A stretch of 32,000 bases of DNA from Candidatus Saccharimonadota bacterium (lineage in GTDB: Bacteria; Patescibacteriota; Gracilibacteria; UBA4473). Below the pieces are notes generated by a model. That model was not told the DNA's origin. It ran no database searches and saw nothing but the letters and a program-made list of their open reading frames with translations. The position numbers and the translations under genes were made by a program. Shown piece after piece: positions 7,462 to 14,991 of the stretch (position 1 is its first letter; each line of letters opens with the position of its first letter). The stretch spans positions 810,001-842,000 of the forward strand of contig JAUIFI010000001.1 in the NCBI GenBank assembly GCA_030429505.1. The letters are read 5' to 3'.

Positions 7462-10400
7462 ATGAAAAAATATCCGCTGACCACGCTCCTGTGCGCGGGG
7501 CTTTTGGCTGTGATGCCAGTGCTTACCTCGCTTTCTCACCTGACCGGCTTTCTCAATTCCGCCTATGCGGCGTCAAATACCGGTGATCAGGTAGGTGTCA
7601 TTGACGGAAAATTCTCTGTCAACCGCAACGGAGCGGCGAACTATACTGTTCCGATTCCGGTTCCTCCGGGCAGAAACCATGTCGAGCCAAAGTTGTCTTT
7701 TGCTTATAACCATTTAGCGGGAAACGGCGAGATGGGCATGGGATGGAGTCTGAGTGGACTATCACTCATTCATCGTTGTCCAGCGACACTCGCTCAAGAC
7801 GGCTATACCGGAGGTATTACCTATGACAGTACGGATCGTTTTTGTCTGGACGGACAGAGACTAGTAGCCGTGGAAAACAAAGCTGGTACAAAGCTGACGA
7901 CACTTTCCAGCCAAGCCTCAGCCTATGGAAAAGACGGAACAGTATATTACACAGAAAACCAGGGCTGGACGAAAGTAGTCTCCAAAGGAACGTGCGGATC
8001 AGGACCATGTTCATTTGATGCATGGATGGCGGATGGAACGCATTTGTCTTTTGGATCGCCGGATGATCAGAGTGATAAGGCTAACGCGCGAGTTCAGGCG
8101 GTCGGAAAAGATGATGTGCGTATCTGGGCGCTGAACAAGCAAGTTGACACCAATGGCAACTATATGTCTGTCAGTTATTTTAAAGATGTCACCGGCAGTG
8201 ATGCGACGGGTGAATACTATCTCAATCGTATCGACTACACTGGTAACCAACTCTCCAATCCTACACTCGCGCCTGATCGTTCCGTGCAGTTCACATATAA
8301 TTTGAATGGCAAAAATGTGCCGCCGACCTATCAGGGCGGTTCTCTGCTCCATTACAAAGTCCTCCTCACCAATGTCAAAACCTACGTGGGATCAGATTTG
8401 GTCAGTAATTTTCAGCTCAATTATACGCTGAGTAAGGCTACAGGCAGAAATTTACTGCAAAGTATGCAGGAATGCAGTTCCGATACCGCGTCTAGTAGTA
8501 CGTGTTTTTTGCCAACAAATTTCACCTGGCGTGATAGTGAGGCTGGTGGCTGGAATACGAGTAGCGCTTATGCTCCGCCCACTGACATCATTGACAGCAA
8601 TCATGCCAATCTTGGTATTCAGATGGTTGATCTCAATGGCGATGGCATGACTGATCTGATCCAGAACCTCCTGAAGAGCGACGGCACAAAGACCACCGGC
8701 GCCTGGATCAATACTGGAAACGGCTGGAAGGCTGACCAGAGCTATATCCCGCCTTTTTACACAGCTATCGAGCAATACGGGGGTAGCAATCCATACGGCT
8801 TTTATGTGGATCTCAATAGCGATGGTCTGACGGATATGTTTCAACTCAAAGTTGATGGCACGGTTAATATCGAAAGTGGCGCCTGGCTCAATACCGGCAG
8901 CGGCTGGCAGTCGAGCAGTAACTATACTCCCCCGACCTCGACCGTAGCTACGGGAGGAAAAGCTTCGGGGGTACTCCTGGGAGACCTCAATGGCGATGGA
9001 CGTCCGGATATGATGCAAAACCGATCACAAACCAATGGCGGTATTCAGGCTGGCGCGTGGCTTAATAACGGTAACGGTTGGCAATCACAAGGCAGCTACA
9101 TCCCCCGAATCGAAATCGCAACAGATGAAAATGGCGACATGGGAGTGCGTCTGTTTGATGTCAATGGCGACCACCTGCCTGACATGGTGCAGGGTTGGAG
9201 CGATGGCGACAGTCAAACTCAGCAAAGCGTCTGGATTAACGAAGACAACTCCTGGACACAGGACAATAGCTACAATATGCCCGCCGATACCTTCTTTGTA
9301 ATCGATGGCAAAGATATGGGCGTGCAACTGATTGATTTCAATGGCGATGGACTGCAAGACATCCTTCGTTGGACAAAACCTCCCTCTAATCCCAAAAATC
9401 CTTCCGCCTACACACCCGGCGCCTGGTTTAGTACGGGTTCGGGATGGACACAAGCTGATAATTATTTTTCTCCCACACCTCTCACCAATGACGGGCAGGA
9501 TATGGGGGTGCGATTTATTGATGTCAATGATGACGGATTGCAAGACATGGTGGCCTATCAAGAAGGCGGGGTCAATAATGCCTGGATCAATAGCGGTGGC
9601 ATGTGGACGTTGGCGCAAACCATGGGCTACACCTATAACTCACCGATACCTTTCGTCAATGACGCCTATCAGGATATGGGCGTCCGTATGGGCGACTTTA
9701 CCGGAGACGGCATTCCCGACCTTTTGTCTGCTATGGAGGGACAAACCAGTCAATCGTGGGTTAACCCGTTGGTGCGGTCTGATCTGGTGGATGTGATGAT
9801 CAATGGTTTCGGCGGAGAGGTTGATGTCACCTACGCCCCTTTAACGGACAGCAGTGTCTATACCGTTAGTTCCGACGACACTCCCTACCCCAATGTCGAT
9901 GTGCAGGGAGCCATGTTTGTCGTGAAAAACTATGTGACCAAAGACGGGTCGGCTTCCTATGGTCGAGGTACTCGGGGAGATACTGAAGGACATGTGTACA
10001 CGTTTGACTACCAGTATGAAGGAGCTCGGAATAACTTTCAGGGACGAGGCTGGCTCGGTTTTGAAAAAGTCACCATTATCGACGGCGATACCAAAAAAAG
10101 AGCTGTCACTTCCTACATGCAGGATGCTCCTTATACCGGTCAGGTCAGCGAACGCGACACTTTGTGCGATAGTGGAAATCCTGTTGATCCCAAATGTACT
10201 ACCGACAACACCCTTTTGAAAAAAGAAACGATGGCCTACACCTGTACCGATATTTTGACCGGGAAGGCGTGTGTATTTGGACAGGGAGCAGAGAAAAATA
10301 CCAAGGTCTATCAGGTTTTGGCGCAAACCGAAACCGAAGATGTGTATGACTATGGCACGTTTAATTATTCGCAAACTACCGCTTACCAGAGTTATGACGC

Positions 10401-14991: not shown

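Follow-up and report, generated by a model that had tools for sequence, protein, structure and literature searches.

Zhang, de Souza, Anantharaman, Iyer and Aravind (2012; Biol Direct 7:18, PMC3482391) describe a 'TcdB/TcaC' class of toxins in which a signal peptide is followed by SpvB, an integrin-like propeller, RHS, HINT, a variable toxin and an immunity protein; HINT releasing peptidases, which are optional, and HNH-fold tips are recorded there for this class. More recently, bacterial teneurin-like proteins (TLPs) were shown experimentally to be Sec-exported, stand-alone YD-shell toxins with immunity genes (Nat Commun 2026, PMC13018210). A 2487-residue RHS polymorphic toxin with a neighboring immunity gene was also reported in the Saccharibacterium 'T. 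rhizospherense' (Starr et al., 2018, PMC6031116). Here, a stretch of 32,000 nt (contig JAUIFI010000001.1, positions 810,001 to 842,000; hereafter the window) was analyzed around a large gene located at positions 7462-14991 of the + strand, referred to as the RHS gene. According to this analysis, the product of the RHS gene is probably a stand-alone polymorphic toxin, an RHS cocoon independent of TcA that belongs to the signal peptide-SpvB-propeller-RHS-HINT-toxin class, with the mechanism and the origin proposed below. Indeed, because every element of the class is present in the same order, the protein can be placed from its sequence among the TcdB/TcaC-type polymorphic toxins, which would make it Sec-dependent and TcA-independent.

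The RHS gene is a single uninterrupted open reading frame (ORF) of 7530 nt, running from ATG to TAG without any stop or frameshift and encoding 2509 residues. A Logan contig from run ERR3428548, obtained by a separate assembly, is identical over a stretch of 20,362 nt that contains the two junctions of the gene, hence the linkage of the gene to the surrounding DNA is not the product of a single assembler. The first 37 residues (7462-7572, + strand; MKKYPLTTLLCAGLLAVMPVLTSL...NSAYA/AS) look like a Sec-type signal peptide, as judged from sequence features alone, with two Lys, a hydrophobic stretch covering residues 3-31 and then an AYA motif. AlphaFold places a low-confidence helix at residues 7-27, and a hydrophobic N-terminus is also found in most homologues. 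The SpvB N-terminal domain, with which the TcB-like shell would start, follows at 7624-8184 (+; PF03534, residues 55-241, E 7.3e-13, 48.8 bits against a cut-off of 22), and the model of residues 1-1000 also matches the SpvB N-domain 6p0x. A predicted seven-blade FG-GAP (integrin-like) beta-propeller comes next (8617-9741, +; FG-GAP_3, E 7e-23), where TcB has its gate propeller. This is illustrated by seven DxNGDGxxD motifs starting at residues 390, 450, 508, 566, 625, 687 and 745 (span 390-753), and by repeated four-strand blades in the AlphaFold model. The next segment, at 9772-10104 (+), resembles TcdB_toxin_midN when scanned alone (PF12256, 24.7 bits against a cut-off of 24.8, E 1.7e-5); this family is present in most of the closest homologues among the matches listed, and TcdB_toxin_midC was not detected in the RHS protein by Pfam. 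The model of residues 1-1000 reached a predicted template modeling score (pTM) of 0.86, with YenB, TcdB1 and TcdB2 as the best Foldseek matches (E ~1e-34, template modeling score, TM, ~0.6) and a teneurin only at rank 34. Both this model and the one described next were built from 39-sequence alignments.

The RHS/YD-repeat shell extends from 10105 to 12942 (+), where RHS_repeat (PF05593) was recovered over six stretches when the segment was scanned alone (25.3 bits against 22), and where AlphaFold builds continuous beta-hairpins with a predicted local distance difference test score (pLDDT) of ~90. The model of residues 1000-2199 (pTM 0.75) has the TcdB2-TccC3 fusion 4o9x as its top Foldseek match (E 1.7e-37, TM ~0.6); this shell half matches all solved RHS shells. 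The RHS-associated core, a predicted plug and aspartyl autoprotease, lies at 13393-13728 (+; TIGR03696, NCBIfam Rhs_assc_core, residues 2006-2089, 80.4 against 32.5 bits). It carries the motifs YYDPVLGRF ... DPSGH at residues 2043-2089, DPSGH itself occupying residues 2085-2089, and its sequence matches the cores of TccC2, YenC2, Tse5 and RhsP. The catalytic residues R2044, D2047 and D2085 are present, and the alignments show no variation at R2044, D2057, D2085 and G2088. As a statement on fold, the RHS protein is, according to these models, the single-chain equivalent of the TcB-TcC cocoon. The initial annotation of this locus had proposed the same order of SpvB, FG-GAP propeller, RHS shell and core and had read it as a fused TcB-TcC-like cocoon; profile searches together with AlphaFold and Foldseek bear this out, residues 1-1000 matching YenB/TcdB and residues 1000-2199 matching TcdB2-TccC3. 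It did not contain the signal peptide, the hairpin inserted in the shell, the hydrophobic segment after the core, the PT-HINT domain, the HNH payload or the VirD4-like gene described below.

The cargo starts with a Gly/Ala-rich hydrophobic segment of 140 residues (13729-14148, +), recognized by hydropathy, whose hydrophobic stretches at residues 2086-2114 and 2130-2149 are kept across the family. When the core was taken together with this segment (residues 1985-2204), the best sequence matches in the PDB were the mosquito proteins SGS4 (9on3, E 4e-22) and SGS1 (8fjp, E 8e-20), above any bacterial Tc or type VI secretion system (T6SS) Rhs protein. In SGS1, the corresponding region consists of helices hidden inside the shell (PMC9935623). 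Since SGS1 and SGS4 are the best matches in the PDB, the bacterial ancestors of the SGS proteins may belong to the SpvB-RHS family. The segment is followed by a predicted PT-HINT (bacterial intein-like) autoprotease at 14149-14556 (+; PF07591, residues 2246-2365, E 7.9e-19; domain at residues 2231-2365), in which C2231, T-P-E-H2300 and H2364-N2365 are all present and which matches the bacterial intein-like domain of PDB 2lwy (E 2e-21). Finally, a linker and a C-terminal HNH (beta-beta-alpha-Me) nuclease tip occupy 14557-14991 (+; PF01844, residues 2447-2489, E 2.3e-7, 31.3 against 21.4 bits), the stop codon being at 14989-14991. The HNH motifs (CVFC2447-2450, D2460-H2461, N2470, N2475 and CPHC2480-2483) are invariant in 11 aligned tips. 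They agree with the pattern of HNH/EndoVII beta-beta-alpha-Me nucleases, which comprises a D/H-H general base, Asn residues, a metal-binding His and a CxxC...CxxC zinc site. Over the last 144 residues, which form this tip, relatives are 49-72% identical, against ~30% for the body; some of them sit directly on RHS cores (P0253, P0257) and others are short orphan ORFs. The gap in identity between tip and body therefore points to modular exchange. Because a HINT domain and an HNH tip were found, and because the catalytic residues of core, HINT and HNH are all intact, the payload is predicted to be an HNH nuclease and the RHS protein a polymorphic toxin.

A candidate for the corresponding immunity protein is encoded further downstream, at 17955-18431 (+), by a gene for a DUF4265 protein of 158 residues (PF14085, E 2.9e-17). 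In all five of the distinct loci that carry the HNH-tip homologue (L003, L004, L005, L009/L010 and L011), this homologue is immediately followed by a gene for a DUF4265 protein (155-164 residues), which starts anywhere from a 16-nt overlap to 21 nt past the tip gene, and the DUF4265 protein of the window is 35-41% identical to three of these partners (L003-L005). Because it lies directly downstream of the same HNH tip in all five loci, DUF4265 is likely the cognate immunity protein of this tip, as deduced from conserved synteny. In the literature searched, the coverage of which is incomplete, no report of DUF4265 as an immunity protein was found. DUF4265 may be proposed as the family conferring immunity to this HNH toxin tip, which is widespread. 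Islands of polymorphic toxin and immunity genes are abundant in Neisseria, and the DUF4265 protein of the window shows a weak sequence match (E 2.6e-4) to PDB 5ueb, an uncharacterized structural-genomics protein of Neisseria gonorrhoeae, which could supply a fold for this immunity family.

The intact catalytic motifs and the nearby immunity gene bear directly on whether the RHS protein could mainly be a surface adhesin or host-attachment protein of an epibiont, in the manner of the giant Vampirococcus surface proteins, with propeller and shell binding the host and with a vestigial toxin end. Episymbionts of the Candidate Phyla Radiation (CPR) do bear very large surface proteins to which a role in attachment is ascribed (PMC8080830), FG-GAP propellers serve in adhesion, and teneurins and SGS1 reuse RHS shells for non-toxic roles (PMC9935623, PMC13018210). 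However, every catalytic motif of the core protease, the HINT and the HNH domains has been preserved, an immunity gene of the matching family is kept nearby, and the identity of the HNH tip to other tips suggests purifying selection. A primarily adhesive role is hence improbable.

The DNA between the toxin and the immunity genes does not appear to belong to the toxin system. A terminator-like hairpin is found 14 nt past the stop codon of the RHS gene (15005-15038, +), made of a perfect 14-nt inverted repeat with a 6-nt loop and followed by a T run, at the place where G+C falls abruptly. Three genes then occupy 15077-17942 on the + strand: an AAA_13 ATPase gene (15077-17326, 29% G+C), assigned by PADLOC to the candidate defense family PDC-S06 (E 2e-60), a RelB gene (17431-17670) and a RelE-like gene (17670-17942). 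Since the immunity genes of the relatives adjoin the tip, this arrangement is consistent with a low-GC defense and toxin-antitoxin cassette having been inserted later between the toxin and DUF4265 genes. The sharp drop in G+C, from 55-58% to 30% within ~100 nt of the toxin stop codon, fits such an insertion; no convincing target-site duplication or direct repeats were found flanking the cassette. Among the relatives, two orphan pairs of HNH tip and DUF4265 genes (L004, 805-3214; L005, 4870-7008) lie directly downstream of tyrosine recombinase (Phage_integrase) genes and adjoin primase or Phage_GPA replication genes. Because of these neighbors, the toxin-immunity module appears to travel on integrative elements.

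The family to which the RHS protein belongs is very large. Among the candidates scored, 1041 proteins matched at E <= 1e-5, and the architecture is common to all 119 non-self matches listed, the tips being variable. The homologues sharing it, among these listed matches, come from Myxococcota, Gammaproteobacteria, Thermoanaerobaculia, Verrucomicrobiota and Bacteroidota. With the N-terminal 1200 residues, 4119 representatives (clusters at 50% identity) were recovered at E <= 1e-30, and a single-protein scan of GTDB representatives matched only one distant gammaproteobacterial fragment. In the ORFs of the window, family searches detected no TcA/VRP1, PAAR, VgrG, ESX or T6SS family, as the initial annotation had stated for the corresponding genes; no PAAR or VgrG match was obtained in the RHS protein or its neighbors, and no TcA gene was found in the 32-kb window or in the 2.5 kb further upstream. 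The loci of four relatives were also inspected, one from Corallococcus silvisoli and three from metagenomic contigs of other phyla. None carries TcA/VRP1 within 10 kb, the inspection of P0002 reaching 3.6 kb upstream and 3.2 kb downstream, the extent of its contig. Directly after the toxin gene come SUFU at P0005 and P0002, a 156-residue ORF at P0003 and an HhH-GPD gene at P0012, so that three of the four relatives have a small or immunity-type gene directly downstream. As these four loci are also without TcA, its absence looks usual for the class rather than peculiar to this window. The delivery route, which had been described as open, is thus less so than supposed: no TcA was found in the DNA inspected, and the Sec signal peptide and the membership of a TcA-independent class indicate how the protein would leave the cell.

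These observations also weigh on the reading of the RHS protein as the BC part of a conventional tripartite Tc (ABC) toxin. In such a toxin, a pentameric TcA translocator encoded elsewhere in the genome would dock on the propeller and inject the cargo, the target being possibly eukaryotic. TcB and TcB-TcC are indeed the nearest solved folds, orphan Tc loci are known in Yersinia (PMC11067744), and the inspection for TcA, i.e., the window and 2.5 kb upstream, covered ~3% of the genome. Nevertheless, in addition to the lack of TcA at this locus and at the four relatives, the protein has features typical of interbacterial polymorphic toxins (HINT and HNH tip), a bacterial-type immunity partner and a Sec signal peptide. 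Furthermore, its propeller has seven blades instead of the six of TcB (PMC9935623), TcdB_toxin_midC is missing from the Pfam matches, and a TcA gene of ~7.5 kb would be a second large burden for a 1-Mb genome. An ABC toxin is therefore very unlikely, and a stand-alone cocoon is retained.

The genome itself is small, a possibility that the initial annotation had considered. The source contig has 1,023,206 bp, of which the RHS gene represents 0.74%, and the best named matches of the FtsH protein of the window come from Candidatus Gracilibacteria (73-75% identity), so the host is probably a reduced-genome CPR bacterium of the Gracilibacteria class using code 11. As its nearest named FtsH relatives are Gracilibacteria, code 25 (UGA as Gly) was examined and ruled out: no in-frame TGA occurs in 8776 codons of 21 ORFs, and two ORFs end in TGA. 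The genome thus uses code 11 and the ORF boundaries stand. Exact-sequence look-ups of the flanking proteins retrieved neither named cluster members nor further downstream sequence. In this respect the host differs from the BD1-5 and Absconditabacteria lineages, UGA not being a sense codon. According to the initial annotation, so costly a weapon would be notable if the host were an episymbiont with a reduced genome; the RHS toxin of a Saccharibacterium (PMC6031116) provides a precedent.

The base composition of the RHS gene had been taken as a sign of horizontal acquisition. The counts on which this was based are exact (56.7% G+C for 8641-8700 and 43.3% for 28501-28560). However, the former line is unrepresentative, lying ~1 standard deviation above the mean of the gene, which is 49.7% (standard deviation of 6.2 over 60-nt lines), compared with 42.2% for pooled core genes and 29-32% for the low-GC flanks. 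When the RHS protein is coded with the codon usage of the core genes, 46.8% G+C is expected, which accounts for ~60% of the excess; this compositional excess is driven by 10% Gly and 11% Thr. In addition, both the G+C at third codon positions (GC3, 0.504) and the correlation of relative synonymous codon usage (RSCU) with core genes (0.55) are inside the native range, which for GC3 is 0.30-0.545, and the low-GC cassettes that flank the gene deviate more sharply in G+C than the gene does. After this control for codon usage, G+C was judged insufficient as proof of transfer when taken alone. An independent and modest support for transfer comes from tetranucleotide usage normalized for base composition, for which the RHS gene correlates with four native chunks at r 0.42-0.57, compared with 0.76-0.88 among the chunks. 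Moreover, the nearest body homologues are 30-41% identical, those that are named among the matches listed being non-CPR, and no relative exceeded 41% identity among 1.84 billion representatives. The relatives of the HNH tip and immunity pair lie on contigs of 49-68% G+C, with a tyrosine recombinase directly upstream of the tip in two of them. On these grounds (atypical tetranucleotides, no closer relative, non-CPR named homologues and the composition of the contigs bearing the tip relatives), the RHS gene, or at least the HNH tip and immunity module, was likely acquired horizontally, this being clearest for the module. The transfer that had been proposed is thus better supported by evidence other than G+C. 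The host-like GC3 suggests that it was not very recent.

The same data touch on the possibility that the RHS gene is a recently transferred passenger, silent or decaying, which insertions have separated from its immunity gene and which plays no part in the biology of the host. Its atypical tetranucleotide signature and its lack of close relatives would agree with this, as would the terminator-like hairpin and the cassette inserted between the toxin and immunity genes. No recognizable promoter is found either, the scan upstream of the gene giving nothing above chance on the + strand, and the ATG is not preceded by a visible Shine-Dalgarno sequence. On the other hand, an intact ORF of 7530 nt would be unlikely to last unselected in a 1-Mb genome, the immunity gene is intact as well, and GC3 and RSCU inside the host range suggest long residence and amelioration. 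A mere passenger thus seems unlikely, and the locus can be regarded as an intact cocoon toxin with a recognizable nuclease payload and a candidate immunity protein.

One part of the RHS protein was unexpected. Between the last strand of the shell (residue ~1827) and the FFHxDH strand of the core (residue ~1978), hydropathy reveals an insert of 147 residues (12943-13383, +; residues 1828-1974), a candidate membrane hairpin or internal signal peptide with two hydrophobic helices. A strong transmembrane helix (residues 1862-1893) is followed by a very basic loop and by a second hydrophobic helix (residues ~1937-1953) ending in a lipobox-like LTG-C. In a survey of 54 homologues, 32 have an equivalent insert of at least 90 residues with predicted transmembrane segments, and the other 22 have a loop of 9-25 residues. 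In 30 homologues and the window protein, the basic loop contains 25 Lys and Arg per 100 residues, compared with 3.4 per 100 past helix 2. After helix 2, AxA-like motifs are usually found (AYADL, ALAEL, AHADL ... PGxNG), the lipobox taking their place in two proteins. Since the positive-inside rule is obeyed and signal-peptidase-like motifs follow helix 2, the insert is read as a membrane hairpin. Such a pattern would be expected of a stop-transfer helix that precedes an internal signal peptide, in which case both the shell and the core-plus-cargo would lie outside the cytoplasm and the hairpin would act as a membrane tether. A bolder and rather doubtful proposal would be that the insert combines a stop-transfer helix with an internal lipoprotein-type signal peptide and anchors the cocoon in the cytoplasmic membrane of the producer, the propeller gate facing outward, which would give a TcA-less, contact-dependent injector. 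If this were true, in a wall-poor episymbiont attached to another bacterium such an injector would send a DNase into the host cell, for predation and nucleotide scavenging, or into rival epibionts. The literature searched, again with incomplete coverage, yielded no description of a hairpin in the shell or of such a delivery mode for an RHS cocoon. The occurrence of the hairpin in many TcA-less SpvB-RHS toxins suggests how a very large family could work without a TcA translocator.

Taken together, these data lead to the following scheme. The N-terminal signal peptide would direct the chain through Sec, and the SpvB, propeller and RHS parts would fold outside the cytoplasm into a closed shell, similar in the models to a fused TcB-TcC. 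The RHS core would plug this shell and cut the chain at DPSGH. A C-terminal cargo of 420 residues, made up of the Gly-rich hydrophobic helices, the PT-HINT and the HNH domains, would remain within the shell in whole or in part. The shell hairpin, with its basic loop in the cytoplasm and its lipoprotein-signal-like helix 2, would probably tether the cocoon to the membrane of the producer. On contact with a neighbor, the hydrophobic helices would exit the shell and insert in the target membrane, and self-cleavage of the HINT at N2365 would release the HNH nuclease, leading to degradation of the target DNA. The DUF4265 protein would protect the producer and its kin, its gene having once adjoined the toxin gene before being split off by the inserted low-GC cassette. 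Within this scheme, the fold given by the models, the intact motifs and the conserved synteny are observed, and the other steps are those that we infer. Several points weigh against it. The helices of the insert are modeled at low confidence (pLDDT 40-55), and the 420-residue cargo exceeds the ~200-300 residues reported within Tc and SGS1 shells, so that the HINT and HNH domains may not fit inside. The DUF4265 gene begins 2963 nt downstream of the toxin gene, past three intervening genes; because this distance and the terminator-like hairpin lie between them, co-expression is uncertain, and the immunity assignment draws on synteny in other genomes. To these are added the missing Shine-Dalgarno sequence, the fraction of the genome covered in the inspection for TcA, and a host taxonomy derived from one marker, FtsH. 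Few candidate effectors have been named for attack and competition by CPR/Patescibacteria episymbionts, and the RHS locus offers a concrete one.

Another export route was suggested by the neighborhood. A VirD4/TraG-like type IV coupling protein of 829 residues is encoded at 22982-25471, 8 kb downstream of the RHS gene and adjoining triosephosphate isomerase; no other gene of a type IV secretion system (T4SS) was recognized in the window. A conserved monoderm-type T4SS is described for Patescibacteria (PMC12102498), and the RHS protein might be conceived as a substrate of such a system, delivered by this coupling protein. However, the RHS protein bears a Sec signal peptide, the two genes are not adjacent, unrelated genes and a tRNA lying between them, and the genomes of the relatives are without linked T4SS genes. 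Moreover, a cocoon of ~270 kDa that folds outside the cell would be ill-suited to a T4SS. Such systems transport unfolded substrates. Nothing ties the VirD4-like gene to the toxin and this route is extremely unlikely.

Several other features of the window were noted. Just upstream of the RHS gene and divergent from it, a low-GC (30%) cassette at 6301-7244 on the - strand contains an HNH endonuclease of 246/247 residues (6501-7244, -), preceded by an overlapping ORF of 67 residues and weakly matching a type IV methyl-directed restriction enzyme in PADLOC. That this endonuclease and the AAA_13 gene on the other side of the RHS gene (15077-17326, +) form one split defense system was considered and set aside, the two genes being divergent and PADLOC naming only PDC-S06 for the ATPase. 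The + strand displays a very strong asymmetry at 1-6000 and 20000-32000 (GC skew of -0.15 to -0.37, AT skew of ~+0.2) whatever the strand of the genes. Two genes depart from it, the RHS gene with a skew of ~0 along much of its sequence and the AAA_13 gene with +0.15. Further downstream, at 25579-27234, a protein of 551 residues combines radical-SAM and GNAT domains in an Elp3-like architecture, which is uncommon in bacteria.

Compared with the described systems, the best structural match for both halves of the RHS protein is the BC subcomplex of the Photorhabdus and Yersinia Tc toxins (TcdB2-TccC3 and YenB-YenC2; TM ~0.6), at a sequence identity of 13-16%. They share the SpvB start, the shell-inserted propeller, the RHS spiral and the aspartyl-protease core with its R/D/D motifs. 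In contrast, the RHS protein forms one continuous chain, starts with a Sec signal peptide and has a seven-blade FG-GAP propeller and a shell hairpin insert, and no TcA partner was found at the loci inspected. Its cargo combines hydrophobic helices with HINT and HNH domains and is accompanied by an immunity gene, whereas that of the Tc toxins is a hypervariable region of the ADP-ribosyltransferase type aimed at eukaryotic cells. The mosquito salivary proteins SGS1 and SGS4 (8fjp, 9on3), which are derived from bacteria, are likewise free-standing cocoons, in which a propeller and a core protease site are combined with predicted transmembrane helices stored in the shell (PMC9935623). Unlike the RHS protein, SGS1 is eukaryotic; its propeller has nine blades, it carries additional lectin/CBM domains and ends in Tox-SGS, and it has no HINT, HNH or classical signal peptide. 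The TLPs and the WapA-type wall-associated RHS toxins resemble the RHS protein as Sec-exported, TcA-less YD shells with variable C-terminal toxins and adjacent immunity genes. The front end differs, consisting of TTR, FN-plug and an NHL propeller in the TLPs, none of which has a Pfam match in the RHS protein, and of SpvB and FG-GAP, matching TcB, in the latter. In the Foldseek search with the shell half, 9ifo stood only at rank 13. As for the T6SS Rhs effectors, they start with a PAAR/VgrG-binding N-terminus instead of a signal peptide followed by SpvB.

Closer to the host, the 'T. rhizospherense' toxin is, like the RHS protein, a giant RHS/YD toxin accompanied by an immunity gene in a CPR genome. 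It carries PA14 and galactose-binding domains, SpvB, propeller, HINT and HNH not being reported for it, and belongs to another CPR class. The nearest system thus remains the TcdB/TcaC-type class, all the elements of which, including the HINT and an HNH-fold tip, are recognized in the RHS protein in the order given in PMC3482391. The RHS protein differs from it in being at most 41% identical to any member and in its host, a CPR bacterium of ~1 Mb, a group that is not among the phyla listed for the class in the 2012 survey. Its immunity partner is also particular, as DUF4265 receives no mention in the text of the survey that was searched (0 occurrences in 300,000 of 357,715 characters) and as the immunity gene is displaced by 3 kb. 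The architecture has hence been known since 2012, and the present finding extends that picture with a very divergent member in an unusual host.

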